Shown here one piece after another: positions 1-61,993 of a DNA stretch of 64,000 nt. This DNA comes from Patescibacteria group bacterium. Lineage in GTDB: Bacteria > Patescibacteriota > Patescibacteriia > UBA9570. The notes under the pieces were generated by a model, which worked only from the letters and a program-made list of their open reading frames with translations, did not search any database and was not told the origin of the DNA. The stretch covers positions 8,610 through 72,609 of the forward strand of contig JBAYIY010000004.1 of assembly GCA_041665365.1 (NCBI GenBank), read 5' to 3'. Both the position numbers and the translations under genes were made by a program. Every line of letters starts with the position of its first letter. The first letter of the stretch is position 1.

Positions 1-3000
1 AAAGTAACTGTACCGAGTGATGGTAGCGTGGTAGATGGTTCATATGCCTTTTCTGAAGATAAAACTGCAGCGGTGTTTTATCCAGCCAGTGATTATCAGG
101 CTGATACTACTTATAAGGTAGAATTAACCAGTGCCATCGAAGGGATTAACCCAGATACCGGCGCGGTCTATAATTTATCCTCCAGTGATTCAAAACGGAT
201 TTTTACTTTCAGCACCGGTACCACCACCGATGATATTCCACCAACTGTTAATGTGGCCGAACTGGCACCATTTCCAGCTGACGGTGATGTGGATATTTGT
301 TTGAACCCAACACTGCAGGTATCATTTTCGGAAAGCCTTGATCCGGCATCGCCATCTGATAATAATTTTTGGTTATTCAAAGCCGCTGACGTTGTAGCCG
401 ATACATTAGATATTGGTAACATTCGGTTAACCAGTATTGGTGGGGAATCGGATGATACTATTGTTACCTCTCCGCAAGACCAATTAGATAGTAACACTGA
501 GTATGGCATTAGTTTGTATAGTGGTGACCCAGCGACCGATCAGTTTACTGGCGCCATTTATGATACATGCGGCAACCCGTTGAGTGGTAATTTTGATGTT
601 CTGATGACAGGTAGCCCAACGGATGATTATATCGATTCGGCTGCCACCACCTATCCCTGGACATTTACGACCGGCGATCAACCATATTGTGTACCGAATA
701 TTGATAGTGTCAGCCAAGAAGATTCTTACTACAGTGAAGATCAAGCACCAATCGGTACCAGTGGAGATGAAGATACTGGTGTTACCACTTTAACCGGTGA
801 TTATCTTTATCCATTTTATGATGTTAATTTTAACGATAATATCTCGGCAGCTGGAATAAATTGTTTTGATACTGGGCACGATACTACATTAGGTTGTTTT
901 GTTAGCCATACTGGTAGTTCCAGTATTTCTTTGCGCTTACCGGTGGCCAGTCAAACCGGGGTAGTGAGTGTGGAAAATAATAATGGTGCCGATGATTCAC
1001 CGCAAGTGGCGGTAGTAGCTTCACCTTATCTGCGTAGTACTTCACCAGCCACTGGGCCAGTTGGACAGTATATTACCATTCGCGGAAAGCATTTCGGTGA
1101 TTATGATCCAGCTGTATCTGGCAGTGAGCGTGGTCAAGTGTGGTTTGGTGATGTGGCCGGTGAATTCGTTTGTGCGGATGGTTGGGACGATACCAGTATT
1201 ATTGTGCGTGTACCAGTGGGGTTAAATGTTGATGATACACCAACCATTCAAGTTATTACAGCCGCCGGTAAATATAGTAATCAATTAAGCTTTACCGTAA
1301 CCGACGGTACACCTGGCCCTGGTTTGTGTGAGTTAGTACCAAAGTGTAGTGATACTGGAGCCGATAGTGTCACGGCCTTAGGAGAAAATTTTGGAGATGA
1401 TGGTGCCGTTTATTTTCAATCATCTTCTGGTGAGGTTAATATTGGCACGGTGACTAGTTGGAATGTGTATAATGAAACCTATCTTAGTCAGACCGTTGTC
1501 ACGGATGGCACGCCGGTAACTGCTCTAGATACGTATAGTTTTTCAGTTGGGTCTACTGGTATTAGTAATAGTTTAGATTTTAAAATTTCCTGTGCCGAAC
1601 CGCCTAGTTTATTTGAGTCTTATAGTTGTGATCTCAGTGCCGGCACCTATTATCTACCAAATCCAACCAGTTCGAGTGATAATGCCTGTGTTAATAGTGT
1701 GATTGATTTTGCTTTCACCACGACTATGGATGATACTGCGGTTGAATCTGGCGTGGCGATTTATAAGTGTAATAATACAGAACCATTCGATGATACAACT
1801 TGTACGCCAATTACTGGTGAGTATATTAGCGGTTTTCTCGATTCAGCTTATGGTGCCGGCAGTACGGCTAGTGAATATTCCTTCACTCCGAGCGGTGGTT
1901 TTTCGGCTGGTTACTACTATAAAGTAACTATACCATCAAGTGTGACTGACAGCACTGGTGTGGGCTTAGATAGTGATTACGCCTGGAATTTTAAAGTGCG
2001 AGATGATACTAGTGCCTGTAAAGTAGATTCTTTATCAGTTTCACCAGCCACGGAACGTGTCACGGGTTATGACGCGGTGGATGCGTGTCTGGATAATCAT
2101 AATTATAAAGACACAAGCTATTCATTGCGCGCTCGTCCGGCCACGGCTGATTGTTTGATGCTTGATGCGGTGGGGGATTACACTTGGGATATAAGTGAAC
2201 CTGCTATATTAACTTTTGGTAGCAATAGCACCACCGGTAGCGATGTCGTTGGTAGTAGTCTGACTCATACTACAACTAATGGTTATGATACTGTTTGTTT
2301 ACAGGGAGCCGGCGAAACCAATGATGGTTTATCTACTGTCTCTGCCTCCATCGAAGGTGTGTCAGATTCAGCTGATATTGAGGTTGATTTTGGTTATTGT
2401 ACGCAAGATAGTGATTGCTATACGGCCGATTGTCGTGATACCTATTGTGATGCCACCACGTCACATTGTGCTCCAGATGTAATTGGATTTACCCCAGCTA
2501 CGGTTGGAGCCGGTGGTTGTTTAACTTTAAATGGTTGCTATTTTGGTAGTGATCAAACTCAATCGGGTTATTGTACGTGTACCAGTTTAAAAGCAGACGG
2601 TGAAACCTGCACGATTGATGAAGGTGATGTGGCCTGTTTGTTATCTGGTGGTATTTCCAGTTGTACTTTAAATGAGGAATATTGTGAGTTAGGTAGCACT
2701 TGTACCACTGAATCAGCCGAGGCTAATTATGATTTAGGTTATTTTAGGGGTTGTGACTGTATCATGACTGATGGTACTAGCCGCACTTGTCGTGTGGAAG
2801 ATGGTGCTACCCAATGTGTGGTAGCTGGTTCTGAAACTTGTTCAGCTACTTCAAGTACATTTACCGCCGGTGGTGCTGGCAGTATCAGTTTTGGTAGTAC
2901 TACCGCCTCAACTCCAGCTTCAACCTACTGTGGTGACGTTTGGAATACCGATCAAGTAGTGGTACAAGTTCCAGAAGATGGTTCAGTTACCCCGGGCACC

Positions 3001-6000
3001 TACGATGTAACATTACAGAGTTACTACGGATTGTCTGACACCATTGAGGGTTGTGCGGTGGGTAGTGACCCAACAGCTTGTTTATGTAGAATAGAGCCAG
3101 CTCGTGGCCAAGAAGGTACCATCGCCGATTTATTTGGTGACCACTTTGATCTTTTCACCACCAATCGGCGAGTCACTTTTGCTGGTTCAATCAGTCGTGT
3201 TCAGACTGATGGCACTGAAACTTGGACTAGTGCCAATGAAATTAACAACTCTATCGTACCAGAAGGGGCTGTTAGTAGTTCTGAAGGTGTGCAATTGGAG
3301 GACGATACTTCTACCAGTAACGCTTTGAATTTTAATGTGAGTTGTAGTTCCGATTTTGATTGTGCCACCGGTTGTTGTAACGCCGGGCAGTGTGCAGCGG
3401 CCGAGCAGTGCAATATTTGTACCACTGACAGTGATTGTTCTTCCAGTGCTTGTACTTCCACTTGTGTGGCCAGTACTTGTGCGCCGGTTATTACTAAGCT
3501 TAGTCCAGATCATGGTGCCGTCGGGCAACCGGTAACTATTCAGGGTTGTCATTTTGGGTCTTATTATGATCCCGCCAGTTCCACTCCGGGAAGTACCGTT
3601 ACCATGGATGGTATTCAAGCCGAGTTAGCCTGTTCAGAAACGCAAGAGTGGAGTAACCGCCAGATTATTGTCACAGCACCAGATGGTATATTTACTGATG
3701 CCACCACTGATTTAGCTAGTGTGCAAGTGCAACAGGTTAGTACAGTGAATGCGGAGTTGATCGCTCAAACCAGCAATGCCGTTGATTTTACTATGGATAA
3801 TAGCTGCTCTGAAGTTGATTTGCCAGTGTTGTGTAATGCTAATCCCGTCTACAGCCCAGTGGCTAATGATGTTACTTTAACCGGTGAGAATTTCCGCGCT
3901 GAAGCTGATGGTTATTGCGCTTGTACTACTAGTTTAGGTGACTGCAAAATCACGGCGGGTGATACCTCTTGTACTCTCACAGAAAGTAACACGTATTATG
4001 TCAATCCGACTGATACCAGTGAAGTTTGTGCTAATGGCAGTTCCGGTCCGGCCACCTCCAATGCCAATACTTTTTACGATGCCACCGTTGGTGCTTGTGT
4101 GTATACCGATACCACTGATACAACTATTACTTGTCAGATTACAACTGGGTCGGCCAGTTGTGTAGTAACAAATTCAGACACGTGTTATGCCGATCGGATT
4201 GATACCAGTTTGAAATGTTCAAAAGATGTTACCGGTTTTGTATCATTAGATGGTTCTGCTCAATACTATTCAGATCAAGCAGCAATCATAGATTGGACGA
4301 CATATTCCAGTACAAAATACGATACAACTGTGCCGAGTGATAGTGAAACTGGAGATGTCAACGTAATTTCTACCACTCAAAATAATACTCAGTGCGTCAG
4401 TAATGGTCTTGAATTTCCAATTTCTTGTGCCTCGTGTGGGGAATGTAACAGTACCGCCGATCATGCATTGAATTGTGATCTCACCTATGATGCCGCCTTT
4501 GGTAGTTGTACCACCTCAAGTACTGGGTTTTGCCGCGCTCAACCGGATTCATGCTGTAATGTCTCCAGTTGTATCTACGATGATACTGCCACTACTGCCG
4601 TCGATGGTGGTACTTGTGTTGGTCAGCCAGTAGTAGCCTTTACTGATCCGGTTATGGCTGTTCAACCAGGTGATACAAATATTTGCGCCAATGTGCAGCT
4701 ACATGTGAAATTTAGTGAAGGCATGACTACCAGTGCCGCCACTGATACGAGCGATAACTTTGATAAATATATTTTCTTACGCCCATCTTCAGCTGATGAC
4801 ACAGCTAGTGATGAAACAGTGTTGAGCACAATTACTCCAACCAAAACCGGCAGTGAGTTAACTTTAGATCTGACAAAATTATTGGATTATGACACTGACT
4901 ATGAATTGATCATTCGTAGTCAGGATACAATTGTGTCAGGCACAAAGCATCAATCGGGTGTAATTTCAGCCACGACCGGTGCCGCTATTGGCTGTGATGC
5001 GACCATGAGTGCACTCGGTGTGTGTCATGATGGTTATATCAAATACACTTTTACCACTGCATCAGCGGCTGATTATTCGACCCAGTGTGGTCCGGCCAGC
5101 GTAGTATTAGAGGCGGATAGTAGTGACTTTATTGACCATGATTATACCTTTAATGAATCAGGGCAAACGGAAGATATCACCGCTACCACCTATTCCGGTG
5201 ATAGTCAGGCGATTAGTAGAATTGATGATGGTACAGAACCTGGTTTTTCTTGGAGTTATGACTGGACACCAACCTATACCACCTTAGCCGATTTAGAAGC
5301 CGATATCTGTCCGATTGCTGGCATTATTGGTGCCAGTACGGATGTGCCTAATCAAACTCTCACCGCTGATACACCAGATGCTGAAGGTGAACATACTGAT
5401 ACAGTAAAAGTTTCCATCACTGGAGATGGTTCCGTTGAACAAGGTTGGAATAATTCTTTTACCGATAGTTTATTATACGATTTTCAATACTGTGATCCAG
5501 ATAAATTAGTCACTTATAGTAACAGTGATTACAACTTATATTGGTCATACTGTCAGGGTGATATGGCTGAGTTTGATGAGGTGTTTAGTAGAGATAGCGC
5601 TAAAATTACTGAAGAATATGGTCACACGGAAGATTTTATTTATGAAATCGGTTTTAAAGATACTGCTGCGACTACCAATGATGCCACTACTAATAATAAC
5701 TTGATTGTGTTACGGGTTTATCCAAACGATATTGACGGTTCACCAGCTTCACCTTGGGATAGTATCAATCCAGATTTATGGTATATGCTAAATACCAATA
5801 ACCCTTCGGCTACCGCTACTCCAACCACAGTGAATGGTTATGATGCTGTCACAGTCGGTAATACTGTTTATGTGGCGGCCAATAATTTGGATGATCACGA
5901 TGATTCTATAGAGGTTGAGGGGGAGGAAGAAGAAGATCTTAATTATGGTACTTTATCATCTTACATGTTTGTAGTGGCTTACAGTGCCGATGCCTCCAGT

Positions 6001-6672
6001 GCCACGACTGATGTAGTCACGGCTATTTTAGATGGTTTCAAATTTAATCGTAATGAGACATTATCAACCGATTGTGCCTTAGAAAAAGCTAAATTAGTCA
6101 TCGATACCAACCGGGTGACCGACTTAGGTACGATCGCTTATTTATTAAGTAGTTATTATTATCATGATAGTGACGGTAATGGTGTAAATGATTTTCCAGA
6201 TTTAACCAGTGGTTCATATATTACCGGTTTAACCACGTCAGTTTGGCCATCTTGGGATGCAGTGTTAGGCGATGCGCTGGGGCAGACGTTGTTTACGGAT
6301 CCGGTTAATACTTTTGCCGATGCAACCACACAGTGCCCATACGCGCCGGACGATAATAAATACTATGATGCCTCTGGCTCATGTTGGGATCCGGTAAACA
6401 AAAAATTCTTCGGGCCAACTGATTCTCATGTTTATCTTTATGAATATCAATCGGCTGATCAATTTGCTTTATATTCCAAGCTAGATTATACCGGTTTAGG
6501 TAGTTGGGGACAGAGTTACTCGTATGATCCATGCACGACATATTCTGATGGTACCACAGCTGTGTCTACTAAAATCAGTGGTTTTTCCGGAGGGTGTTCG
6601 ACCTTTAACTACCTGGTCAATAATACATTGACGACAGATAATACCCTGTATGCCAAACTCTTTGCCGATTGA
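1..6672 (+). CDS. Giant secreted/cell-surface protein (over 2214 aa). The reading frame is open from base 1, so the gene is probably 5'-truncated by the window edge. It is Thr/Ser/Asp/Gly/Cys-rich with repeated IPT/TIG-like modules and many CxxxC pairs.
   Basis: The track ORF 28..6672 is in frame with bases 1-27 with no stop. Repeated '...GQ(Y/P)(I/V)TI(R/Q)G.HFG...' segments resemble IPT/TIG domains. The composition is extreme in Cys and Thr. No TM segment is seen in the part covered. Confidence 0.6.
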   Translation, partial: KVTVPSDGSVVDGSYAFSEDKTAAVFYPASDYQADTTYKVELTSAIEGINPDTGAVYNLSSSDSKRIFTFSTGTTTDDIPPTVNVAELAPFPADGDVDICLNPTLQVSFSESLDPASPSDNNFWLFKAADVVADTLDIGNIRLTSIGGESDDTIVTSPQDQLDSNTEYGISLYSGDPATDQFTGAIYDTCGNPLSGNFDVLMTGSPTDDYIDSAATTYPWTFTTGDQPYCVPNIDSVSQEDSYYSEDQAPIGTSGDEDTGVTTLTGDYLYPFYDVNFNDNISAAGINCFDTGHDTTLGCFVSHTGSSSISLRLPVASQTGVVSVENNNGADDSPQVAVVASPYLRSTSPATGPVGQYITIRGKHFGDYDPAVSGSERGQVWFGDVAGEFVCADGWDDTSIIVRVPVGLNVDDTPTIQVITAAGKYSNQLSFTVTDGTPGPGLCELVPKCSDTGADSVTALGENFGDDGAVYFQSSSGEVNIGTVTSWNVYNETYLSQTVVTDGTPVTALDTYSFSVGSTGISNSLDFKISCAEPPSLFESYSCDLSAGTYYLPNPTSSSDNACVNSVIDFAFTTTMDDTAVESGVAIYKCNNTEPFDDTTCTPITGEYISGFLDSAYGAGSTASEYSFTPSGGFSAGYYYKVTIPSSVTDSTGVGLDSDYAWNFKVRDDTSACKVDSLSVSPATERVTGYDAVDACLDNHNYKDTSYSLRARPATADCLMLDAVGDYTWDISEPAILTFGSNSTTGSDVVGSSLTHTTTNGYDTVCLQGAGETNDGLSTVSASIEGVSDSADIEVDFGYCTQDSDCYTADCRDTYCDATTSHCAPDVIGFTPATVGAGGCLTLNGCYFGSDQTQSGYCTCTSLKADGETCTIDEGDVACLLSGGISSCTLNEEYCELGSTCTTESAEANYDLGYFRGCDCIMTDGTSRTCRVEDGATQCVVAGSETCSATSSTFTAGGAGSISFGSTTASTPASTYCGDVWNTDQVVVQVPEDGSVTPGTYDVTLQSYYGLSDTIEGCAVGSDPTACLCRIEPARGQEGTIADLFGDHFDLFTTNRRVTFAGSISRVQTDGTETWTSANEINNSIVPEGAVSSSEGVQLEDDTSTSNALNFNVSCSSDFDCATGCCNAGQCAAAEQCNICTTDSDCSSSACTSTCVASTCAPVITKLSPDHGAVGQPVTIQGCHFGSYYDPASSTPGSTVTMDGIQAELACSETQEWSNRQIIVTAPDGIFTDATTDLASVQVQQVSTVNAELIAQTSNAVDFTMDNSCSEVDLPVLCNANPVYSPVANDVTLTGENFRAEADGYCACTTSLGDCKITAGDTSCTLTESNTYYVNPTDTSEVCANGSSGPATSNANTFYDATVGACVYTDTTDTTITCQITTGSASCVVTNSDTCYADRIDTSLKCSKDVTGFVSLDGSAQYYSDQAAIIDWTTYSSTKYDTTVPSDSETGDVNVISTTQNNTQCVSNGLEFPISCASCGECNSTADHALNCDLTYDAAFGSCTTSSTGFCRAQPDSCCNVSSCIYDDTATTAVDGGTCVGQPVVAFTDPVMAVQPGDTNICANVQLHVKFSEGMTTSAATDTSDNFDKYIFLRPSSADDTASDETVLSTITPTKTGSELTLDLTKLLDYDTDYELIIRSQDTIVSGTKHQSGVISATTGAAIGCDATMSALGVCHDGYIKYTFTTASAADYSTQCGPASVVLEADSSDFIDHDYTFNESGQTEDITATTYSGDSQAISRIDDGTEPGFSWSYDWTPTYTTLADLEADICPIAGIIGASTDVPNQTLTADTPDAEGEHTDTVKVSITGDGSVEQGWNNSFTDSLLYDFQYCDPDKLVTYSNSDYNLYWSYCQGDMAEFDEVFSRDSAKITEEYGHTEDFIYEIGFKDTAATTNDATTNNNLIVLRVYPNDIDGSPASPWDSINPDLWYMLNTNNPSATATPTTVNGYDAVTVGNTVYVAANNLDDHDDSIEVEGEEEEDLNYGTLSSYMFVVAYSADASSATTDVVTAILDGFKFNRNETLSTDCALEKAKLVIDTNRVTDLGTIAYLLSSYYYHDSDGNGVNDFPDLTSGSYITGLTTSVWPSWDAVLGDALGQTLFTDPVNTFADATTQCPYAPDDNKYYDASGSCWDPVNKKFFGPTDSHVYLYEYQSADQFALYSKLDYTGLGSWGQSYSYDPCTTYSDGTTAVSTKISGFSGGCSTFNYLVNNTLTTDNTLYAKLFAD

Positions 6673-11735: not shown

Positions 11736-11752
11736 GGAACAACAATTAACAT

Positions 11753-11794
11753 AAAACTGGTAGAGACATGCCATGGCATGTCTCTACCAGTTTT
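11753..11794 (+). terminator. 42-nt perfect palindrome (aaaactggtagagacatgcc|atgg|catgtctctaccagtttt) after ftsZ. It is flanked by an A-tract and a T-tract, so it can act as a bidirectional intrinsic terminator. It belongs to the GTAGAGAC palindrome family.
   Basis: Reverse-complement identity checked base by base. T4 follows on the + strand and A4 precedes. Confidence 0.7.
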
Positions 11795-11860
11795 ATGTGT
11801 GTCAATATGTTTTTTATTATGGTTTATTTATGGCAGATGATCTATACTAACTGACGAACT

Positions 11861-19318: not shown

Positions 19319-19924
19319 TTAGAAGTGAGCGTGCAATAGGCTAGTATTATCAGTCATTTTACCCTGATCGAGTATAATTAAGTGCTGGCTCATGAACTGT
19401 GCCTCTTTAATATCGTGAGTAACGTATATGACAGTAATGTTTTTTTGCGTTATTAGTTGTTTAAACCAGCGCGCCAGCTCTACCCGAGTAATAGCATCAA
19501 GCGCGGCGAAAGGTTCGTCACACAATAATACCGTTGGTTCATAAACTAAACTTCTGGCTAACATTACACGCCTAATTTCACCACCACTAATTTCATGGGG
19601 GTAACGGGTAGTTAATTGTGCGACACCACAATCATTCATAATCTCAGTACTTGATTTTTTTAGGTGTCGAACATGTAAGGGATAATTTATATTTTCTTCG
19701 ACAGTAAGATGTGGAAAGAGGGTATTGTGTTGTTCAATATATCCAAGTCGTTTTGGATGGAAACCTGTTATATTACCAGTATAATCTTGTAAGCCGGCGA
19801 TACAGCGTAATAATGTAGTTTTACCCGAACCGGATTTTCCCAGCACAGTTAAAATATCACCAGTGGGTACAGTAATGTGAATATCTCTAAGGATTAACGC
19901 CTGAGTAATCTGGAGGTTGAGCAT
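19319..19924 (-). CDS. ABC transporter ATP-binding protein (thiamin/Fe3+/polyamine importer type)
   Basis: Walker A 'GKSGSGKTTLLRCIAGL', signature 'ISGGE', Walker B 'LLCDEPFAALD'. The start was chosen at the internal Met (the track ORF starts at 19954). Confidence 0.8.
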   Translation of the reverse strand: MLNLQITQALILRDIHITVPTGDILTVLGKSGSGKTTLLRCIAGLQDYTGNITGFHPKRLGYIEQHNTLFPHLTVEENINYPLHVRHLKKSSTEIMNDCGVAQLTTRYPHEISGGEIRRVMLARSLVYEPTVLLCDEPFAALDAITRVELARWFKQLITQKNITVIYVTHDIKEAQFMSQHLIILDQGKMTDNTSLLHAHF

Positions 19925-21219
19925 ATGGTTATAAAAATTATCCCTAATATACACACAAGCGCTAAACTACCAACTTGAAAATGATAACTAGATAACAAGC
20001 CAAAGGCTACTTGCATGCTAGTTGGAGCATTGTTGGGGGCAAGTAAACTAGCCAAGGCAATATCGCCAAACACAAAGGCGATGCCTAAACTTATCACCTG
20101 GCTAATAGTCGGTTTTAACCAGTTAATTTCTAACAGATATTGTTGTAAGTAATTAGCACCTAATATTTTGGCTGTGTTATGAAAATATTCCGGTAGTTGC
20201 CGATAACTTTGGGCGATGAAATAATTTGTGATCGGTACTAATCCGATTACCAGAGCTAACCAGAGGCTTAATTTACTTTGGCCTAATATCAGTAACCAGA
20301 TAAAACCCAGTGTTACTGGTGATAAGGTTAATAATAAAACACTGATTTTAAAGGAAGATTTTAATAATAGACTGATAAATAAAGTTGTTATAATAACAGA
20401 ACTGGCTAACATTGTTGTCCAAAGAATACTTAGAAAAAAATGGCTGTGAGTTAATAAGGTCAGTGTTTTAAGATTGGTTTGACTAATTGTTTTAAAAACA
20501 AAGAATGCAAGAGGAGTTAGTACTATTATTGCTAAACAGGCATGAATAAAATGAATGAAGAATGAAGAATGATGAATGATGGTGGGGGGCGTAAAAGATA
20601 GTTGGGGTTTAAGATTGGGACGAATTATTAATAAAATAACCAGACTGAAAATCACAGTCTGCAAGCCGGTGATCCAACCAACTAGGTTATAATCATGATA
20701 GAGGATAATGCGTTGATACAGCCACACTTCGAGAGTTTGGGCATGGATACCACCTAGTTGTAAGGGTAGTGCAAAACTAGTGATACAGTACAAAAAGATG
20801 ATACCGGCTACACCTAGGATAGTTGGTTTGAGTTGTGGCCACCACAGGGTAAGAAACAGTTGTTTATTGTTCGCTCCTAACACCCGAGCCGACTCTTCGG
20901 TATGAAATGAGATAGCCTGCAAAGCAGAATGAATCGCAAGATAAGCCAGAGGGATATTGTAGTAGAGGTGGGCCAGTACCACCATGGTTGGTGTATAGAG
21001 CAGTGACGAGCCCGAAAAGAGCTGAATAAAACTGGTACTCACTAGGATAGGGGGAAGAAAAACAGGTAGATAGAAAATAGGAAATAGGAAAGTTGGGGGA
21101 TGGGCACGAGTAGCACGCTCAAACAGGGCTAGACTACCACCTAGAAAAATTGCCAATAGGGTAGTTAAACTAGCTTGCCAGAGAGTAAACCAAATTACAG
21201 ACCAAAGCTGGTATGCCAT
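19894..21219 (-). CDS. ABC transporter permease (polytopic)
   Basis: At least ten hydrophobic helices. Sits in an operon with the ATPase and the binding protein. Confidence 0.7.
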   Translation of the reverse strand: MAYQLWSVIWFTLWQASLTTLLAIFLGGSLALFERATRAHPPTFLFPIFYLPVFLPPILVSTSFIQLFSGSSLLYTPTMVVLAHLYYNIPLAYLAIHSALQAISFHTEESARVLGANNKQLFLTLWWPQLKPTILGVAGIIFLYCITSFALPLQLGGIHAQTLEVWLYQRIILYHDYNLVGWITGLQTVIFSLVILLIIRPNLKPQLSFTPPTIIHHSSFFIHFIHACLAIIVLTPLAFFVFKTISQTNLKTLTLLTHSHFFLSILWTTMLASSVIITTLFISLLLKSSFKISVLLLTLSPVTLGFIWLLILGQSKLSLWLALVIGLVPITNYFIAQSYRQLPEYFHNTAKILGANYLQQYLLEINWLKPTISQVISLGIAFVFGDIALASLLAPNNAPTSMQVAFGLLSSYHFQVGSLALVCILGIIFITICSTSRLLRR

Positions 21220-22232
21220 TGTTCTAGGTAAGGTGTGTAATTATTTTGTATAGTAATTTCATCAAGTGGTAAGCTGGTTTTTAAATTCGGTGTGATAATT
21301 TGTGAATAGGCATCAGGCAGTGTTACCTCATTTTTCAAAACAGGGAACATCCATTGGGTAGTAGGGATAGCTTGTTGGACAGGTTGACTCAACATGTAAT
21401 CAATAAACTGTTGTCCTAGAGTTGTGGCTGCACTACCATGCACCAAGCCGACACCTTCAACTTGTGGTAAATAACCATCTGTTATGGGAATTGTTTTGTA
21501 ACGGTCGGTTTGTTCTTGATCAATGTGGTACGCCGGACTGGTAACATAACTTAATACAATCGGAGCTTGATCATTTAAAAACATTGAGTAGTAAGCCGTG
21601 TTCCAATCTGGCGCTACTGTTAGAACTTGATTGGATAGTTTATCAAAAAATTCTTTGGCTTGGTCATCGCCTAAAGCCTGATGTGCCCAAAACAATAATT
21701 GTGTACCGGGGGAGGACAAACCGGGTTGTTCGATAATAATTTTTTTATTGTAAGCTGAATTATTTACTAATTCCATCAAGCTAATCGGTTCAGAAAAGGT
21801 TAGTGCCTGACTATCATAGACGAAACTAACATAACCATAATCAAACGGGGTCATAGTAAAATCATTATCAAACCGGAGTCGTTTTGGAATAGCACTAGCT
21901 CTGGTTGGTTTATATGGATCTAGTAGATTATTAGTTTTTAAATCAGGTAGGTTAATGTTATCTAACCCTAACACTACGTCGGCCTTAGGATTATTTTTCT
22001 CCGCGATTAATTGATTTAACATCGCCCCAGTATCAGTAAAACTAACAATATTTAAAGTGATTTGATGATCCTGTTCAAATTGATCTTTAATGGCTGGGAG
22101 TAATCCATAGTCGGCCGATAAGCTGTCGTATGTGTAAACTGTTAATGTAGTCGGTTCGGTGGCCACTGGTGTTGATTTTACACAACCAGTACCAAAAAGA
22201 AATACGGTGAGTAGTATATATATTTTTTTCAC
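21195..22232 (-). CDS. ABC transporter substrate-binding lipoprotein (thiamin/iron/spermidine SBP fold)
   Basis: Lipobox 'LFGTGC'. Size and periplasmic-binding-protein-like composition. The operon order SBP-permease-ATPase fits. Confidence 0.65.
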   Translation of the reverse strand: MKKIYILLTVFLFGTGCVKSTPVATEPTTLTVYTYDSLSADYGLLPAIKDQFEQDHQITLNIVSFTDTGAMLNQLIAEKNNPKADVVLGLDNINLPDLKTNNLLDPYKPTRASAIPKRLRFDNDFTMTPFDYGYVSFVYDSQALTFSEPISLMELVNNSAYNKKIIIEQPGLSSPGTQLLFWAHQALGDDQAKEFFDKLSNQVLTVAPDWNTAYYSMFLNDQAPIVLSYVTSPAYHIDQEQTDRYKTIPITDGYLPQVEGVGLVHGSAATTLGQQFIDYMLSQPVQQAIPTTQWMFPVLKNEVTLPDAYSQIITPNLKTSLPLDEITIQNNYTPYLEQWHTSFGL

Positions 22233-22380
22233 AAAATATGTTTATTAAAAATAAAATTCCCAATTTATAGGGAATACAGCCTGTATTCCCTACGCTGGCA
22301 TAACCCAGATCAGGTAATGTAAGGATACTTCTCAGTCCATAAGGACGCTCCTATACAGTGCTATCATATTACCAGTTGAG

Positions 22381-33748: not shown

Positions 33749-33783
33749 ATCTAGAAGAGATGTGTCACCGGCACGTCTCTTCT
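33749..33783. repeat. Palindromic hairpin (ctagaagaga[t/c]gtg-tcaccgg-cacgtctcttctag). A variant of the GAGACGTG...CACGTCTC family.
   Basis: 14-bp arms with one mismatch. Shares AGAGACGTGCC/GGCACGTCTCT with the element at 41366. Confidence 0.55.
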
Positions 33784-33847
33784 AGGCTAAACCACACGTT
33801 TACTGACTATGATTACAAATGTAATTCTTGAAAATTAATTCCTTGTT

Positions 33848-36924: not shown

Positions 36925-38238
36925 GTGCATAGATCAACGCTTGTTTGGTTGTCATGGTTAATCTTTATGGCCGGGGTGTGGCATATACCCCAACTAATTA
37001 TCTTTTTAGTAGGTTGTGGTTTTGTCACCAGCTTAATTGGCTGGAAACGTTATGTGTTGTTGGGTTGGTTAATGGGATGTGCCGCCATCGGGGTGGCTTA
37101 TTATGATCAGTTTTTTGTTGACCCAATATATTTAGACGGAGCGAAATTTAATGACACAGTGTTAGTGGATCGTTTACCGGTTTTGCATGAAGGTAGTCAG
37201 CGTTTGGTAGTTGTTACCAAAGAACAACAACATCTGCAACTCGATGCTGACTTGTATCCGGAATATCGTTATGGTGATGTGATAAATCTTAGATGCACCA
37301 TTCGGTTACCTAAACAAATCGAGGGATTTGCTTATGATAAATATTTAGCTCGGTTTCATATTCAAGCTTTATGTGATTATCCAACCACCGCGTTCGTTGC
37401 TACCAACCAAGGTAACAAAATAATTACTAGCATTTATGAGTTTAGAAATAATTTAAGGAAACGGGTTGAGAGTTTATGGCACGAACCGGCCGCGTCATTA
37501 TTATTAGGTGTGTTGATTGGCGAACAAGATACGATTCCTATTTCTATTTATACTAGTTTTCAGCGGGCTGGGGTGGTGCACATTTTAGTTGTGTCCGGCA
37601 TGCACGTGTTGTTGTTGGTGCAATTATTAACCAGTTTTACTAAATGGTTGCCAAAATTTTATCAAACATTAGTGATAGTTTTAGCCTTAACGGCTTTTTG
37701 TGTGCTAACCGGTTTTTCCGCCACCGTCATTCGCGCCACGGTGATGGGATCAATTCCGTTATTAGGTAGATTTATTGGTCGACCACATCGCATTCATCTG
37801 ACGTTAACCTGGGCGGCTGGAGTAATTACTCTGGTGAATCCATATATCTTAGTACACGATGTTGGTTTTCAATTATCGTTTTTAGCCACTTTAGGTTTGG
37901 TGTATATGACGCCGTTTGTTAAACCATTTACCAAATGGTTACCGGAAAAATTTGAATTACGCGATACCGTCACCACTACCTTAGCCGCCACTACCACCAC
38001 AGCACCGTGGATTGGTTATACTTTTGGTACTTGGTCTAATGTGGCCATGCTATCAAACATCGTGGTGCTGCCAACGTCGAATCTCATGTTATTTGCCGGC
38101 GGTGTCATCACAGCCCTGTCTGTATTATTTCCAAATCTAGCGCAAATGTTAGCGACATTATTGGAAGTGATTATAAATTTACTTGTGCAATATGTTGATT
38201 GGTGTGCCGCATTGCCTTATGCCTATATTAAGTGGTAA
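36925..38238 (+). CDS. comEC: ComEC/Rec2 DNA-uptake channel, membrane part (DUF4131 plus competence domain)
   Basis: Polytopic membrane protein. 'GVVHILVVSGMHV' is the typical ComEC competence-domain motif. Confidence 0.75.
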   Translation: MHRSTLVWLSWLIFMAGVWHIPQLIIFLVGCGFVTSLIGWKRYVLLGWLMGCAAIGVAYYDQFFVDPIYLDGAKFNDTVLVDRLPVLHEGSQRLVVVTKEQQHLQLDADLYPEYRYGDVINLRCTIRLPKQIEGFAYDKYLARFHIQALCDYPTTAFVATNQGNKIITSIYEFRNNLRKRVESLWHEPAASLLLGVLIGEQDTIPISIYTSFQRAGVVHILVVSGMHVLLLVQLLTSFTKWLPKFYQTLVIVLALTAFCVLTGFSATVIRATVMGSIPLLGRFIGRPHRIHLTLTWAAGVITLVNPYILVHDVGFQLSFLATLGLVYMTPFVKPFTKWLPEKFELRDTVTTTLAATTTTAPWIGYTFGTWSNVAMLSNIVVLPTSNLMLFAGGVITALSVLFPNLAQMLATLLEVIINLLVQYVDWCAALPYAYIKW

Positions 38239-39080
38239 AAAATATGTTTACAAAAATAAATAAATTGGTCATTTTAATCTGTGTTGGAGTGGCGCTGTAT
38301 TATTTTTATCAGCAATCTTTACCGGGTAATCTGACTGGTTCGTTTGTAGCATTTTTAGATGTTGGACAAGGCGATGCCATTTATATTCGTACCAGTAATG
38401 GGAGCGATGTGTTGATTGACGGTGGACCGGATCGTAAAATTCTCGAGCAGTTACCCAAAGTGTTAGCGCCACAAGACAATACCATTGAACTGATGTTACT
38501 CACTCATCCGGATGCCGATCATATCGATGGTCTGATTGAAGTGGTGAAGCGGTATAGTGTGAAACAAATTATCACCACAGCCTTGCCAGCCGAAAAATCA
38601 GACTATAAAGAATTATTAAACTTAATCGAAACAAAAAATATTCAACACACCGTAGTACAACAGGGGAATAAAATTGTGTTGGGTGAGCAAGATGATATCG
38701 ATATTTTATACCCTGAAGCGGATACACCTTTGACCACTTTAAGTACCAATAATACTTCATTGGTCGCTGAATATCATTATAAAAATCAAACTACGGAAAA
38801 AACGATCTTATTGGTGGGTGATGCCGAAACTCCAGTGGAGGATGAATTACTCAAACAAAATTTATTGCATGACGTCGATATTTTAAAAGTTGGTCATCAT
38901 GGTAGCAAAACGTCATCCTCAGAAGCATTCTTACAAAAAATTACACCGGAGTTGTGTATCATCGAAGTGGGAAAAGATAATTCGTATGGTCATCCGCACG
39001 CTGAGGTGGTACATAGGTTACAACAGTATTGTGAGATTAAAAGAACTGATGACTGGGGGAATATCGTGATTAACAATTGA
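38232..39080 (+). CDS. comEC: ComEC C-terminal metallo-beta-lactamase domain, encoded as a separate ORF overlapping the previous one by 7 nt
   Basis: 'LLTHPDADHIDGL' (HxHxDH), 'LKVGHHGSKTSSS'. N-terminal TM anchor. Confidence 0.75.
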   Translation: MVKNMFTKINKLVILICVGVALYYFYQQSLPGNLTGSFVAFLDVGQGDAIYIRTSNGSDVLIDGGPDRKILEQLPKVLAPQDNTIELMLLTHPDADHIDGLIEVVKRYSVKQIITTALPAEKSDYKELLNLIETKNIQHTVVQQGNKIVLGEQDDIDILYPEADTPLTTLSTNNTSLVAEYHYKNQTTEKTILLVGDAETPVEDELLKQNLLHDVDILKVGHHGSKTSSSEAFLQKITPELCIIEVGKDNSYGHPHAEVVHRLQQYCEIKRTDDWGNIVINN

Positions 39081-39215: not shown

Positions 39216-40394
39216 ATGCGTAAAGTCTTCACATCTGAGTCAGTCACCGAGGGTCATCCCGATAAAATGGCTGATCAAATTTCCGATGCGGTGCTCGATG
39301 CCATTTTAGCCCTTGATCCAAAGGGGCGAGTGGCTTGCGAAACTTATTTAACCAATGGTGTGTGTTTGGTGGGTGGAGAGGTAACTACCTCTGCCAAGAT
39401 TGATGTCCCAAACTTAGTGCGCGCCGTCATTAAAGATATTGGTTATGCCAAATCCGATTATGGGTTTCATTGGGAAACGTCTGGTTTGATGGTAACAATA
39501 AAAGAGCAATCGCCTGACATTGCCATGGGTGTGGATAGTATTAAAGACCAACAAGAAGATCTGGCTAATTTAGGGGCAGGTGACCAAGGCCTGATGTTTG
39601 GTTATGCCTGTAATGAAACGAAAGAATTAATGCCATTACCAATTGTTTTGGCGCATAAATTAGCCAAACGCTTAGCAGAAGTGCGCAAAAAAAATATTAT
39701 TAAAGGTTTGCGCCCAGATGGTAAAAGTCAGGTTACGGTAGAATATGACGAAAATGATCAACCGGTGCGGGTTCGGTCAGTGTTAATTTCAGCACAGCAT
39801 AATCCAGAATTATCGGTTAAAAAACTCAAGCCGCAGATTATTAAACAGGTAATCAAAGCAGTTATTCCAAAAAACTTGTTAGATAAAGATACGCTATATT
39901 ATGTTAATCCAACTGGTCGATTTGTGATTGGTGGGCCACAAGGCGATACTGGTTTAACCGGCCGCAAGATTATTGTGGATACCTATGGTGGTTATGCCCG
40001 CCATGGTGGCGGTGCTTTTTCTGGCAAAGATCCCAGTAAAGTTGATCGCACCGGCAGTTACGCCGCGCGCTGGATTGCAAAAAATATTGTGGCGGCTAAA
40101 TTAGCCTCACGCGCTGAAGTGCAAGTAGCCTATGCCATCGGTATGGCCGAACCGTTATCGGTGCGCGTTGATACGTTTGGTACCGGCGTAGTTGGAGACG
40201 ATATTCTAGCTGACGCTGTACAACAAGTGTTTGATTTACGTCCCGGCATGATTATTAAAGCACTAAATTTACGTCAGCCAATTTATAAACAAACCGCGGC
40301 CTATGGTCATTTTGGTCGAAACGATTTAAAACTACCTTGGGAACAAACCAATCGTATTATCCAACTTAAACAAGCCGTGAAGAAATTACAATAA
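39216..40394 (+). CDS. metK: S-adenosylmethionine synthetase
   Basis: '[25 protein letters not shown]', '[23 protein letters not shown]'. Confidence 0.95.
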
Positions 40395-41359
40395 TGTCGG
40401 TTATCGTGTCAGGCTCAATTGCGTTCGATCGCATCATGGATTTTCCTGGAAAATTTTCTGACCATATTCTGCCTAATAAAATTCATAATCTCAATGTCAG
40501 TTTTGGTCTAGATAAATTATCCATCGAGTTTGGTGGTACCGCCGGTAATATCGCTTATACACTATCATTATTTGGAGAAAAACCCAGTATTGTTGGTAGT
40601 GTCGGTCATGATTTTGCTCCCTACAAAAAGCATCTTATCAAACACCATATCAATCTTCGGGACATTCGTGTAATTCCAAAAGAAACCTGTGCCACCGCTC
40701 ACATTATTACCGACCAAGGTGATAATCAAATAGCTGGTTTTCATTTCGGTGCCATTAGTTATCCGGCCGTGTCAGCACAGATCGTAACAAAACAAACCAA
40801 ATTAGGTATTATAGCGGCTGGTAATCTTGCTGATATGATGAAACTATCCGAGCAATATCGCCATAATCATGTTCCGTTTATTGTCGATCCAGGACAACAA
40901 CTTACCTGGCTAACCGGAGCACAATTAACCTATTTATTAAATGGTGCTCACACCTTGGTGGTAAATGATTATGAACTGGCTGTGGTTCAAAAAAAATTAA
41001 TGTCTGTAGAGACACGCCATGGCGTGTCTCTACAGAATAAATCGTCTCTACAAAATTTGACCCAATTGGTTGTCACCAAAGGTGAAAAAGGCGCCGATTG
41101 GTTTGTGGGTGGAAAACGCTATGTTTTGCCGGTGGCTAAACCCACCCGGGTATTAGATCCAACCGGGGCAGGTGATGCCTACCGCAGTGGCATAATTCTT
41201 GGTATACTCCGCCAGTGGTCACCCGAGCAAGCTGGTCGTGTGGCCGCTTTATGTGCGACGTATGCCATCGAACAATACGGCACACAAAACCACACGTTTA
41301 CAAAAACACAATTTAAAAAACGCTATTATAAAAATTTTAAACATAATATAATTATTTAA
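40394..41359 (+). CDS. PfkB-family carbohydrate/nucleoside kinase, likely adenosine kinase given the metK/ahcY context
   Basis: 'NDYE' (NxxE motif). 'DPTGAGDAYRSG' anion-hole motif. Confidence 0.7.
   Translation: MSVIVSGSIAFDRIMDFPGKFSDHILPNKIHNLNVSFGLDKLSIEFGGTAGNIAYTLSLFGEKPSIVGSVGHDFAPYKKHLIKHHINLRDIRVIPKETCATAHIITDQGDNQIAGFHFGAISYPAVSAQIVTKQTKLGIIAAGNLADMMKLSEQYRHNHVPFIVDPGQQLTWLTGAQLTYLLNGAHTLVVNDYELAVVQKKLMSVETRHGVSLQNKSSLQNLTQLVVTKGEKGADWFVGGKRYVLPVAKPTRVLDPTGAGDAYRSGIILGILRQWSPEQAGRVAALCATYAIEQYGTQNHTFTKTQFKKRYYKNFKHNIII
41003..41036. repeat. 34-nt perfect palindrome (tctgtagagacacgcc|atgg|cgtgtctctacaga) inside the adoK coding sequence, in frame (encodes SVETRHGVSLQ). A duplicated half-arm 'cgtctctaca' follows at 41044-41053.
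   Basis: Exact reverse-complement symmetry verified. Same arm family as 11753-11794. Confidence 0.75.
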
Positions 41360-41365
41360 TCGATA

Positions 41366-41396
41366 GGTAGAGACGTGCCGCCGGCACGTTTCTACC
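41366..41396. repeat. Imperfect palindrome ggtagagacgtgcc-gccggc-ggcacgtttctacc between adoK and ahcY
   Basis: One mismatch in the 14-bp arms. Family core GTAGAGACG. Confidence 0.6.
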
Positions 41397-49192: not shown

Positions 49193-49200
49193 AAGCCTAT

Positions 49201-49226
49201 AACAGGGGTGATTAATCACCCCTGTT
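49201..49226. promoter_or_regulatory. 26-nt perfect palindrome aacaggggtgattaatcacccctgtt between the Cys-peptide ORF and blaI. Candidate operator or terminator.
   Basis: Self-complementary. It shares the TGATTAATCA centre with the 59.6-62.9 kb palindromes. Confidence 0.5.
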
Positions 49227-49231
49227 CTATT

Positions 49232-49609
49232 ATGTTACATACCTTAAAACCATTAGGTGAACTAGAACAACATATCATGGATGTGATGTGGGGTAATGAT
49301 TTTAATACCGTGCGGGCTGTTTATGAATCTATGCAAAACCACCGGGATATTGCTTACACTACAGTGATGACAACGATGGATCGGCTCACCAAAAAAGGTG
49401 TCTTACAACGCGTTAAAGTGGGTAAGGCTTATCAATACAAAACAGCGCAAACCGAAACTGAATTGTGTTTACATACCACTAAAGTTATGATTGACATGTT
49501 GGTCAGTAGATATGGTGATTTAGCCATTGCGCAATTTGTTGATACAGTTGATCAAATTGATCCGAAAAAATTCGCCGCTTTAAAAAAAATCGTCAATGAA
49601 CATCGCTAA
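49232..49609 (+). CDS. BlaI/MecI/CopY-family winged-helix repressor
   Basis: 'LGELEQHIMDVMW...AYTTVMTTMDRLTKKGVL' matches the Penicillinase_R family pattern. Start moved to the ATG at 49232. Confidence 0.75.
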   Translation: MLHTLKPLGELEQHIMDVMWGNDFNTVRAVYESMQNHRDIAYTTVMTTMDRLTKKGVLQRVKVGKAYQYKTAQTETELCLHTTKVMIDMLVSRYGDLAIAQFVDTVDQIDPKKFAALKKIVNEHR

Positions 49610-55714: not shown

Positions 55715-56939
55715 ACAGTTAGCTCAAGCAACTTTACGAGCTTTGCAGCCTGAGCAAATGGTTAAGGTTAATTTACCAAAATTAGGTGTTTATAAACATA
55801 TTTATGTCATTGGTGCCGGTAAGGCCACTTTTGGCATGGCGGTACAAATTAATAAAATGCTCGGCAAAAAGATTACCGCCGGTTATATAAATGTACCAGG
55901 CAATAGCCAACAGGCAATAGGGAAAATTATTGTACAGACGGGGTCACATCCGTTTCCAGATCAAAATACAGTACAAGCTAGTAACAATATATTGAAATTA
56001 GTACGATCTGCTGGAAAAAATGATTTAGTAATTGGCTTGTGGAGTGGGGGAGGGTCGAGTTTGTTTACTATTCCGCGGGCAGGTATCACTTTGCCACAAC
56101 AAGTTGAACTCACTAAAAAATTAATGAGAGCCGGGGCGGATATTATTGAGTTGAACACTGTGCGTAAACATATTTCACAGGTTAAAGGTGGGCAATTAGC
56201 CGCAGTGTGTTCTGCAGCGATGTTGAATTTGATTATTTCTGACGTGATTGGTGACCCGCTAGATGTTATCGCCTCAGGCCCTACCGTGGCGGATGCATCT
56301 ACCACTAAACAAGCCAGGCAAATTCTAAAAAAATATCATATCTATAATAAACCGTTAGAAAAAATTATCTTATTAGAAACTCCTAAAAAGATAAATTCAA
56401 AAAAAGTAAAGAATATCCTAATCGGTTCAAATAAAATTGCTTTAAATTATTTAGTTAAACTAGCCAAACAGAAACAGATCACACCGGTTATTATAACCGA
56501 TCGTTTATCTGGAGAAGCTAGAATTGTAGCTAAGAGATTGTGTCGTTATGCTAAAAAGATTCAAGCTATTAAACAGTTACCGGTTTTATTATTAGCCGGT
56601 GGTGAAACTACAGTGACGGTAAAAGGCAACGGTTATGGTGGGCGTAATCAAGAATTAGTATTGGCGGCTTTACCGCATTTGGCACCCGGTATCAGCCTAT
56701 TATCATTGGCCACCGACGGGGTTGATGGTTTTACACCTAAACCGGTCGCTGCCGCCTTTGGGACGTTTATTGGTGGTAAAGACGCGATTAATCGCGTCTT
56801 TACCACCAATAAATTTTTGGATAATCACGATTCCTATACAATCTTAAACAAATTGCACCAATTATTGTTTACCGGACCAACTGGTACCAATGTGGGGGAT
56901 ATCGTGCTGTTGTTGGTTGAAAAACCCCCAGTCCTGTGA
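55677..56939 (+). CDS. Glycerate 2-kinase (MOFRL family)
   Basis: 'LVIGLWSGGGSSLF' and 'LLAGGETTVTVKGNGYGGRNQE' are MOFRL/GckA hallmarks. Confidence 0.7.
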   Translation: MSVEKNYPIKLLKQLAQATLRALQPEQMVKVNLPKLGVYKHIYVIGAGKATFGMAVQINKMLGKKITAGYINVPGNSQQAIGKIIVQTGSHPFPDQNTVQASNNILKLVRSAGKNDLVIGLWSGGGSSLFTIPRAGITLPQQVELTKKLMRAGADIIELNTVRKHISQVKGGQLAAVCSAAMLNLIISDVIGDPLDVIASGPTVADASTTKQARQILKKYHIYNKPLEKIILLETPKKINSKKVKNILIGSNKIALNYLVKLAKQKQITPVIITDRLSGEARIVAKRLCRYAKKIQAIKQLPVLLLAGGETTVTVKGNGYGGRNQELVLAALPHLAPGISLLSLATDGVDGFTPKPVAAAFGTFIGGKDAINRVFTTNKFLDNHDSYTILNKLHQLLFTGPTGTNVGDIVLLLVEKPPVL

Positions 56940-58897: not shown

Positions 58898-59665
58898 ATG
58901 TTACCGAATTTACATTGGGCAACGATTACGCTTGGACCAATCGTGATTCAAGTGTGGGGTTTGTTTGTGGCACTTGGTATTATCGTAGCGGTATTGGTCG
59001 TTAAACAGTTTGCTAAACAGCGGCAATTAAATGACACCGCCGTAGTGGACGCCAGTTTTTGGATAATGGTGGCGGCCATGTTGATGGGTCGAGTGTGGTT
59101 TGTGTTTGATGAATGGTCTTTATTTAGCGGACATGTGTTAGATGCTTTAAAAATTTGGGAAGGAGGGATGTCAATCAGCGGTGGTTTCTTTGGGGCTTTA
59201 GTAGCCGGAGTGATTTATTTTAAATATAAAAAATTACCGTTTCTACCTTATGCGGAAGTAATGGTGTACGCTTTACCGTTAGGTATTGCCATCGGCCGGT
59301 TGGGTTGTTTCTTTATTTTTGACCATCCCGGAACGGTGACAAATTTCTTCTTAGGTGAGGTTTATTTTGTGGATGGCCTCGTGCGCCATAATCATGGGTT
59401 ATATCTAGTGATAGATGGAGCAGTGTTATTTAGTTTATTTACTTATCTACGGTACAAAACCAAAGCCTTACCACCATATTTTGTGACGATATTTTTACTG
59501 TGGGAAGGTTTGGTGCGAATTATTTTAGACAATTGGCGCATCGCCGATAACCACTGGTACGGCTTTACCGCCGCCCAATGGTGGGGAGTTGTGATGGTAT
59601 TAGGTGGTTTAACTGTGTTTGGCACGAGGCAGATTATAAGGAAGAAATACACACACGTCCTGTAG
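58898..59665 (+). CDS. lgt: Probable prolipoprotein diacylglyceryl transferase (Lgt-like polytopic membrane protein)
   Basis: Seven TM segments. 'GIAIGRLGCFFIFDHPG' resembles the Lgt GR.GNF region. The stop codon TAG lies inside the following palindrome. Confidence 0.45.
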   Translation: MLPNLHWATITLGPIVIQVWGLFVALGIIVAVLVVKQFAKQRQLNDTAVVDASFWIMVAAMLMGRVWFVFDEWSLFSGHVLDALKIWEGGMSISGGFFGALVAGVIYFKYKKLPFLPYAEVMVYALPLGIAIGRLGCFFIFDHPGTVTNFFLGEVYFVDGLVRHNHGLYLVIDGAVLFSLFTYLRYKTKALPPYFVTIFLLWEGLVRIILDNWRIADNHWYGFTAAQWWGVVMVLGGLTVFGTRQIIRKKYTHVL

Positions 59666-59694
59666 AGACGCGATTAATCGCGTCTCTACAGGAC
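59657..59694. repeat. 38-nt perfect palindrome gtcctgtagagacgcgattaatcgcgtctctacaggac
   Basis: Verified self-complementary. Overlaps the lgt stop codon. Confidence 0.8.
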
Positions 59695-59922: not shown

Positions 59923-59976
59923 ACCCCCTGTCCTGGTAGAGACGCGATTAATCGCGTCTCTACCAGGACAGGGGGT
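59923..59976. repeat. 54-nt perfect palindrome (acccccctgtcctggtagagacgcgattaatcgcgtctctaccaggacagggggt), a longer copy of the 59657 element
   Basis: Verified base by base. Confidence 0.8.
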
Positions 59977-60095
59977 ACCGGGACGTCGGTTATTAATCTC
60001 GGTCTATCTGTGAGCCTTATCCAGGGGACGGTTGGGGCAATGATGCTCTGATCACACTGGGTGGGGTTTGGTCACAAAAACCGAAAGGAGAGGCC

Positions 60096-61835: not shown

Positions 61836-61962
61836 CCAGCCCGAGCCATTAGCGTGTGGCTCGTAAAAGATATCACGCCAGTTTCTCGTCGGTTTGAGCC
61901 ATAGTCATTACTGTGGTTCGCCGACATTCGTGTTTCAACAAACAACAATTCAAACAACAAAT

Positions 61963-61993
61963 TGTAGAGACGTCCCGCCGGGACGTCTCTACA
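61963..61993. repeat. Palindrome tgtagagacgtcccg-c-cgggacgtctctaca between the two high-GC genes
   Basis: 15-bp arms, verified. Confidence 0.75.

Follow-up and report, generated by a model that had tools for sequence, protein, structure and literature searches.

In the classification of Y1 enzymes by Quentin, Siguier, Chandler and Fichant (2018; PMC6006769), subclass 2.4 corresponds to group 4 of the repetitive extragenic palindrome (REP)-associated tyrosine transposases (RAYTs) of Bertels et al. The enzymes of this subclass carry the motifs NH[IFV]H, WQ and YIxNNP, and their repeats are double-foot REPs of the form 5' GT[AG]G ... C[TC]AC 3', which also occur as in-frame insertions within the tnpA_REP genes themselves (PMC6006769). 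For subclass 2.4 genes, Table S1 of that paper gives sequences such as GTAGAGACGCACGGCCGTGCGTCTCTAC, GTAGAGACGCAATGCATTGCGTCTCTAC and GTAGAGACGTTGCATGCAACGTCTCTAC, and those of Chloroflexus, Chlorobium, Calothrix and Cyanothece have the form GTAGAGACG....CGTCTCTAC. GTAG-tagged REP super-families, cyanobacterial ones among them, and intragenic REPs were also described by Di Nocera et al. 2013 (PMC3733652). Here, we analyzed a 64,000-nt stretch of a Patescibacteria genome (hereafter the window, meaning the whole stretch; contig JBAYIY010000004.1), which contains a dispersed family of palindromes sharing the arm GTAGAGAC. Our comparisons indicate with high confidence that these palindromes are double-foot REPs, the cognate repeat of TnpA_REP subclass 2.4/RAYT group 4.

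The preliminary description of this DNA had reported dispersed palindromes with a shared arm, and the counts bear it out. In the window, GTAGAGAC has 17 exact matches against 0.68 +/- 0.85 expected, with no shuffle as high as 17, and 16 of these matches are arms of a palindrome or adjoin one; a solitary 8-mer at 32187, within an open reading frame (ORF), is probably a chance occurrence. Likewise, GAGACG-N(0-30)-CGTCTC was matched 5 times where 0.01 matches were expected. The palindrome family is therefore confirmed, and its frequency in the window far exceeds chance. It comprises nine palindromes of 28-60 nt, perfect or nearly so, and a variant with GTAAAGAC arms, which brings the count to ten copies per 64 kb, and the core unit measures 28-31 nt across them:

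HP1, 11749-11798, unstranded: 50-nt perfect palindrome ACATAAAACTG-GTAGAGAC-ATGCCATGGCAT-GTCTCTAC-CAGTTTTATGT, within which the previously reported 11753-11794 falls.
HP2, 41003-41036, unstranded: 34-nt perfect palindrome within the pfkB-family kinase ORF 40394-41359.
Solitary half-site CGTCTCTAC, 41043-41051, plus strand: 7 nt past HP2, making the direct repeat GTCTCTACAgAAT / GTCTCTACAaAAT.
HP3, 41366-41396, unstranded: 31-nt palindrome with the 13-nt centre GTGCCGCCGGCAC and one G.T position (GTAGAGAC / GTTTCTAC).
HP4, 56766-56813, unstranded: 48-nt perfect palindrome with symmetric variant arms GTAAAGAC/GTCTTTAC and centre GCGATTAATCGC, from a one-mismatch search.
HP5, 59657-59694, unstranded: 38-nt perfect palindrome with centre GCGATTAATCGC.
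HP6, 59923-59976, unstranded: 54-nt perfect palindrome with centre GCGATTAATCGC, at the left border of a GC-rich (0.62) segment.
HP7, 61963-61993, unstranded: 31-nt perfect palindrome with the 13-nt centre GTCCCGCCGGGAC, between two GC-rich ORFs.
HP8, 62896-62955, unstranded: 60-nt perfect palindrome with centre GCGATTAATCGC, where the GC-rich segment meets an AT-rich RhuM gene.
HP9, 63728-63755, unstranded: bare 28-nt unit GTAGAGAC-GTTGTATGCAAC-GTCTCTAC, 10 nt past the RhuM stop codon, at the border back to native composition.
Possible decayed relative, 33751-33785, unstranded: CTAGAAGAGATGTG...CACGTCTCTTCTAG, 93% complementary, with the foot CTAG instead of GTAG; its membership is uncertain.

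The centres listed in the preliminary description are correct, but the copy at 56766-56813 had been overlooked, and the variant reported at 33749 (33751-33785) resembles the family only in a degenerate form and has CTAG at its foot. The statement that every copy contains GAGACG/CGTCTC did not hold, since the copies at 11749 and 41003 carry GAGACA/TGTCTC and that at 41366 has CGTTTC on one arm; the arms, given as 12-27 nt, range in fact from 12 to 30 nt.

Three layers can be distinguished in the window copies. The foot is a conserved 8-9 bp, (T/G)GTAGAGAC(G/A), and all ten copies start with GTAG (GTAA in HP4) and end with CTAC (TTAC in HP4). The centre, of 12-13 nt, depends on the copy and yet is palindromic in its own right: GCGATTAATCGC is found in 4 copies, GTTGTATGCAAC in 1, and A(T/C)GCCATGGC(A/G)T in 2 that are separated by one compensatory pair. 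A single compensatory pair also separates GTGCCGCCGGCAC from GTCCCGCCGGGAC, and a symmetric 1-bp difference between HP5 and HP6 is a further example of such substitutions. The outer layer, present in 5 of the 9 GTAGAGAC-armed copies (HP3 counted), is an extra, perfectly complementary arm of 5-16 bp that is unique to each copy. The right flank of HP5, AGGACAGGG, repeats the right arm of HP6. Folded as single-stranded DNA, each copy forms one long hairpin of -13 to -35 kcal/mol (z = -6 to -13.5). The unit is 5'-GTAG-AGAC(G/A)-(variable self-complementary 10-11 nt)-(C/T)GTCT-CTAC-3', a 28-29-bp dyad of which either strand yields a 12-bp hairpin with the REP guide tetranucleotide GTAG at its 5' foot.

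Because Table S1 of PMC6006769 contains such sequences, the window palindromes belong to a catalogued REP type, which is now placed in a new host lineage, the Patescibacteria. Shared with the double-foot REPs of that paper are the foot 5' GTAG ... CTAC 3', the 28-29-nt size, the 12-13-bp stem with a 3-4-nt loop, and the in-frame insertion into genes. The window differs from them in its host, as Patescibacteria have 0 mentions in the paper's text, in the lack of a tnpA_REP gene in the ~75 kb read here, and in the extra perfect outer arms. The REP, bacterial interspersed mosaic element (BIME) and REPIN (REP doublet forming hairpins) systems of E. coli and Pseudomonas, with RAYTs of subclass 2.2/2.5, likewise consist of small scattered hairpins, mostly extragenic, that bear a GTAG guide at the foot and lack target duplications, and they share a high copy number and a single-copy Y1 enzyme flanked by repeats. 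In classical REPs, however, GTAG is unpaired and on one side only, and a mobile REPIN combines two REPs in inverted orientation around a spacer, whereas both feet of the window unit pair together, giving one 28-mer that is symmetric on both strands. Classical REPs are moreover described as species-specific (PMC6006769), in contrast to the window-type foot, which is invariant across phyla. Rickettsia palindromic elements are also palindromic repeats that lie in frame in functional protein genes of a small-genome bacterium (PMC3733652), but they are ~100-150 bp long and CGTC-tagged, with no sequence similarity to the window unit, and Di Nocera et al. found no transposase partner for CGTC-tagged repeats (PMC3733652). 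A literature search with the literal motif returned primer noise only.

The preliminary description had suggested that a REP/RAYT-like protein recognizes the arm, and this suggestion is supported by Table S1 of PMC6006769 and by the genes found beside the same hairpin elsewhere. ORF clustering within 2.5 kb of 185 hairpins revealed no universally shared neighbour. Annotation with Pfam and NCBIfam identified a Y1/HUH transposase gene at six Bacteroidota/Balneolia hairpin loci of the genome collection (L121-L240). Its product carries the motifs MPNHLH (NHLH), WQ and YIxNNP; the Pfam Y1_Tnp match is weak, and the sole NCBIfam match of the transposase cluster is NF047646, REP-associated tyrosine transposase (E = 1e-15). 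At these six loci the hairpin lies closely upstream, closely downstream, or in frame within the transposase gene, where it reads VETHGRASLQ or RRDAMHRVST, and at a seventh, cyanobacterial locus another RAYT-like gene is located 146 nt from the hairpin. In the reverse test, 80 metagenomic loci were picked solely by transposase protein motifs. The full GTAGAGAC...GTCTCTAC hairpin was present in 43 of the 80 and the 8-mer in 60, amounting to 208 copies of the latter per 327 kb against ~10 expected. Among 65 hairpins of this set, 35 lie in the gene and 17 lie at most 140 nt upstream, and all 7 downstream copies are within 110 nt. This layout of hairpin and transposase is the REPtron arrangement.

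The hairpin is distributed widely beyond this genome. An IMG/VR scan used the pattern GTAGAGAC-N(4-16)-GTCTCTAC, and the matches listed mostly measured 28 nt and had palindromic centres. Some IMG/VR copies adjoin ORFs of phage capsid, protease and DnaA-C-like type, which were considered and rejected as partners, being ordinary phage genes unlinked to the hairpin. A 28-mer without palindromic symmetry, GTAGAGACTTCCTAAGGGCTGTCTCTAC, recurs between conserved flanks in L005, L012, L021, L023 and ~25 more IMG/VR loci, mostly of sample 3300045988; it has the same arms but is a different object, probably part of a conserved gene. Scanning one genome per species with GTAGAGACG-N10-CGTCTCTAC, for which ~9 chance matches were estimated over the whole genome collection, gave listed matches in Bacteroidota, Nostocales and other cyanobacteria, Anaerolineae (Chloroflexi), Acidobacteria, Ignavibacteria, Zixibacteria, Spirochaetes, Planctomycetes and others, at GC contents of 0.31-0.69. 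Among these listed matches the 9-nt foot is invariant and the centre covaries over at least 8 phyla. Solitary extra half-sites beside full copies, like that at 41043-41051, recur in other phyla as well.

A comparison set of 128 distinct copies was further assembled, in which the search pattern fixed only the feet. At all five inner positions, 84-97% of these copies form a Watson-Crick pair, and the central tetranucleotide is self-complementary in 101 of them (79%; CATG 43, TGCA 15, AATT 14, GGCC 11, TTAA 7), which makes the object a true DNA dyad, more than a stem with a free loop. Only 5 of the 128 copies have the palindrome extended outward by at least 5 bp, whereas 5 of 9 window copies do (Fisher p = 7e-5). 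Copies within spanning ORFs of at least 200 aa make up ~29% in other genomes, compared with 76% of random positions; judged from flanking peptide sequence only, the apparent host ORFs there include a type IX secretion system tail, an efflux pump and glycoside hydrolases.

The same set bears on whether the elements could be minimal miniature inverted-repeat transposable elements, that is, pairs of directly adjoining terminal inverted repeats mobilized by a DDE transposase. Such elements would be short, dispersed and palindromic, as observed, and some window copies share sequence past the core (HP5 and HP6, through AGGACAGGG). Direct repeats of 2-5 nt nevertheless flank the 128 copies only at chance level, no DDE transposase recurs by the hairpins or occurs in the window, and the gene that does recur encodes a Y1/HUH enzyme, so that this explanation appears extremely improbable. 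The absence of target-site duplications is expected for Y1/IS200-type chemistry.

Tandem repeats of 6-10 nt often surround the REP in Bacteroidota, cyanobacteria and Chloroflexi (L148, L174, L191, L193, L198, L238), and within transposase genes they translate to runs such as DSHDSHDSH and SNEQSNEQ. The small dispersed repeats of Nostocales, in the account of Elhai et al. from 2008, are reportedly 21-27-nt mobile repeats with compensatory changes that occur in tandem heptamer repeats and are nested within one another. The cyanobacterial copies of the window type likewise often stand in short tandem repeats, but that a family of these small dispersed repeats is the GTAGAGAC hairpin is a lead only.

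Several observations weigh against the assignment of the window palindromes to a subclass 2.4 REP system. No biochemical test of any subclass 2.4 enzyme was found in the REP/TnpA_REP papers considered here. A tnpA(REP) candidate gene had been proposed as something to look for, but no Y1/HUH gene was found in the ~75 kb comprising window positions 1-64000, 3.3 kb upstream and 7.8 kb downstream. This search used a profile of the six transposases, a HUH...Y regular expression and Pfam on most large ORFs between 17.6 and 49.6 kb, extended by selected ORFs elsewhere and by precomputed Pfam calls for the regions covered by contigs L242 and L244. The local copies could consequently be orphans, and local activity is at most putative; REPs without a tnpA_REP gene have been reported (PMC6006769). 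HP1 is identical in contig L243 of a strain 99.7% identical, the only second strain compared, which gives no sign of recent mobility. Patescibacteria are absent from the genome-scan matches listed, which suggests that the element is unusual for the phylum. Finally, the RAYT model alone leaves unexplained both the self-complementary centre (101/128 copies) and the extra 5-16-bp arms (5/9 local copies vs 5/128 elsewhere).

By analogy with E. coli TnpA_REP and IS200/IS605 (via PMC6006769), the enzyme would bind the folded single strand, read GTAG at its foot, and cut and rejoin single-stranded DNA, and copies would spread in trans, probably at replication forks, without target duplication. Binding and cleavage of the folded strand by a Y1 enzyme are described only for the E. 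coli enzyme, which belongs to another subclass (as cited in PMC6006769). For subclass 2.4, we predict that TnpA_REP binds GTAGAGACGCGATTAATCGCGTCTCTAC and cleaves it at the foot in a strand-specific manner, and the dyad would present the enzyme with an identical substrate on both strands. Recognition alone leaves three features unaccounted for, namely a centre of perfect symmetry, compensatory substitutions and long arms peculiar to each copy, and we propose that template switching between the arms also contributes. Inter-arm template switching is a means by which quasipalindromes are corrected and extended. Acting in replication, it would yield the symmetry, the compensatory changes and the long arms. 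As HP4 suggests, it could also make a palindrome longer with no net insertion.

When the gene positions of the copies were tabulated, as had been proposed earlier, most proved to be intergenic (7 of the ten), with 1 over a stop codon and 2 in frame within genes; the preliminary description had missed that the copies at 41003 and 56766 lie within coding sequences and that the one at 59657 covers the lgt stop. HP1 is located 13 nt past the ftsZ stop codon and 62 nt ahead of the nrdR start, and HP3 is located 6 nt past the pfkB stop and 22 nt ahead of the ahcY start. HP2 is read in frame as SVETRHGVSLQ, a 9-residue insertion that is absent from all eleven aligned PfkB homologues. HP4 falls in the ORF of a DUF4147/MOFRL glycerate kinase, where its in-frame translation is FIGGKDAINRVFTTNK; the loop concerned exceeds that of the nearest relatives by 6 residues and varies in length across the family. 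The stop codon of lgt is the TAG of HP5's GTAG foot (59663-59665). Intragenic copies would persist when inserted in surface loops, in one of two open frames that read VETxxxxSL(Q) or (R/K)DAxxxVST; the third frame is shut by the TAG of GTAG. The open frames explain the recurring peptides, and the closed one explains the use of HP5 as the lgt stop.

These positions raise the alternative that the hairpins act at the transcript level, as intrinsic terminators or as mRNA-stabilizing 3' stem-loops, and are selected on RNA structure with the shared arm as a by-product. The stems are very stable, the intergenic copies mostly follow closely after a stop codon (HP1, HP3, HP5, HP9), and REPs elsewhere are reported to affect termination and mRNA stability (PMC6006769), a role that could coexist with REP identity. 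However, the transcribed strand carries no T-tract, in agreement with the earlier remark that most copies lack one. A consensus scan detected no convincing plus-strand terminator at any copy and only weak minus-strand matches with poor T-runs. The possibility that the repeat is the stem of a known structural RNA, raised in the same description, received no support either, as no Rfam family matched at the palindromes: a thiamine pyrophosphate (TPP) riboswitch alone passed the gathering threshold, and relaxing to E <= 10 added just generic matches to miRNA-precursor-like hairpins. The two copies within coding sequences, the palindromic loop in 79% of copies, which RNA folding does not need, and an invariant 9-nt foot in at least 8 phyla with a link to a transposase clade are likewise unexpected for terminators. 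Altogether, we consider a purely transcript-level origin highly unlikely.

An over-represented short motif that stands in inverted pairs after genes also resembles the DNA uptake sequence of Neisseria, which often occurs as inverted pairs after genes, and a comEC gene is present in the window (36925-39080). GTAGAGAC(G) might accordingly serve as an uptake sequence for a ComEC-based competence system of the episymbiont. The comEC gene consists of two overlapping ORFs, one with the Competence domain (36925-38238) and one with the metallo-beta-lactamase domain (38232-39080), representing a split gene or a frameshift. Uptake sequences are lineage-specific, whereas the present motif is common to unrelated phyla of very different GC; it is hardly ever single here (16/17 in or beside palindromes) and it tracks the Y1 transposase. 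We therefore give the uptake explanation next to no credence.

The clustering of HP6 to HP9 coincides with a mosaic of composition. In a genome of GC 0.42, the segments of 59977-63755 have GC contents of 0.62, 0.61 and 0.32, and HP6, HP7, HP8 and HP9 stand exactly at the segment borders. The part at 59977-62895 (GC 0.62) encodes a 579-aa membrane protein and a 262-aa ORF of no family, and the RhuM gene at 63041-63718 has a GC content of 0.32. An exhaustive search among 1.8 billion representatives returned 10 relatives of the 579-aa protein, the best of them on a contig of GC 0.60; neither a homologous-protein search nor BLAST against phages and plasmids returned anything for this gene. The outer arms of HP6 and HP8 gave four matches in IMG/VR, and the one inspected (L325) was without the hairpin. 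We treat 59.9-63.8 kb as an island in which REPs accumulated or served as junctions.

The location of HP6-HP9 at these borders, together with a gene of a rare family whose best relative is on a GC-rich contig, could indicate that the palindromes are recombination or integration sites that delimit acquired cassettes, similar to the attC hairpins of integrons. Those sites, which are imperfect palindromes, are likewise recognized as folded single strands and stand between cassettes of differing composition, but they span 57-141 nt, lack symmetry, contain extrahelical bases and depend on an IntI integrase beside the array, none of which was seen here. No integrase or recombinase was present in the ~75 kb read. 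Furthermore, the contig of the best relative lacks the hairpin, and no jump in composition was detected at the hairpin over 106 copies in other genomes (Mann-Whitney p = 0.68). As 6 of the 10 local copies are away from such borders, the hairpins are symmetric, some are within genes, and REPs may merely accumulate in the non-essential spacers of an island, an attC-like role is very improbable.

A bolder variant of the REP identification would combine these elements. Orphan double-foot REPs, in a reduced genome with no RAYT, would have been held symmetric and lengthened to 50-60-bp perfect palindromes by cross-fork template switching and would act as portable recombination points that stitch in foreign DNA, namely the GC 0.62 and 0.32 modules at 59.9-63.8 kb. 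One hairpin marks each module border, and the role as a recombination point would follow from the 28-bp core being identical across phyla. We regard this proposal as speculative and unlikely. Next to HP8, at 62960-62988 and upstream of the RhuM gene, a near-consensus sigma-70-type promoter was observed (TTGACA-17-TATTAT, 11/12). Moreover, the Logan contig L241, an independent assembly corresponding to window positions 59947-62925, has its start and its end precisely at the centres of the 54-nt and 60-nt palindromes. As a practical consequence, de Bruijn assemblies are interrupted at the dyad axis of perfect palindromes that exceed k in length.

Patescibacteria genomes are roughly 1 Mb in size and usually considered repeat-poor. 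The host range of RAYT subclass 2.4 and double-foot REPs now includes this group, in which annotators can mask the repeat and read VETRHGVSLQ or KDAINRVFT in proteins of the candidate phyla radiation (CPR) as REP insertions, not genuine motifs. Two features stand out as puzzles of REP biology, namely the 9-bp foot that is invariant across phyla despite the species-specific description of REPs, and a dyad that is perfect through its centre, beyond what the hairpin-recognition model needs. The window copies also illustrate that such elements can extend outward into long palindromes of perfect symmetry, insert in frame into housekeeping genes or donate a stop codon.

The gene content of the window includes FtsA, FtsZ, NrdR, a class II ribonucleotide reductase, PfkB, AhcY, Lgt, ComEC and others. 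Homologues of the PfkB and glycerate-kinase proteins put the window close to Kerfeldbacteria within the Patescibacteria, and its sequence is also contained in a 365-kb ENA contig (ERZ27249449, k141_1447249). The TPP riboswitch, at 22270-22362 on the minus strand, scores 62 bits, which exceeds the gathering threshold, and is situated upstream of an operon for a solute-binding protein, a permease and an ABC ATPase (19319-22232), which is probably a thiamine-related transporter. A further near-perfect palindrome of 32 nt, TATAACAGGGGTGATTAATCACCCCTGTTCTA at 49198-49229, overlaps the beginning of a repressor gene of BlaI/MecI type (49208-49609) that is followed by an M56 peptidase gene, and is probably the operator of that repressor; it is without the GTAGAGAC foot, and its centre, GTGATTAATCAC, is similar to a REP centre. 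At the left end of the window, 28-6672 encodes a giant protein of 2372 aa with T4SS_pilin and Big_5 domains that continues upstream in contig L242; a second giant protein, bearing DUF2341/Calx-beta domains, comes before it, and such large surface proteins are typical of CPR episymbionts.

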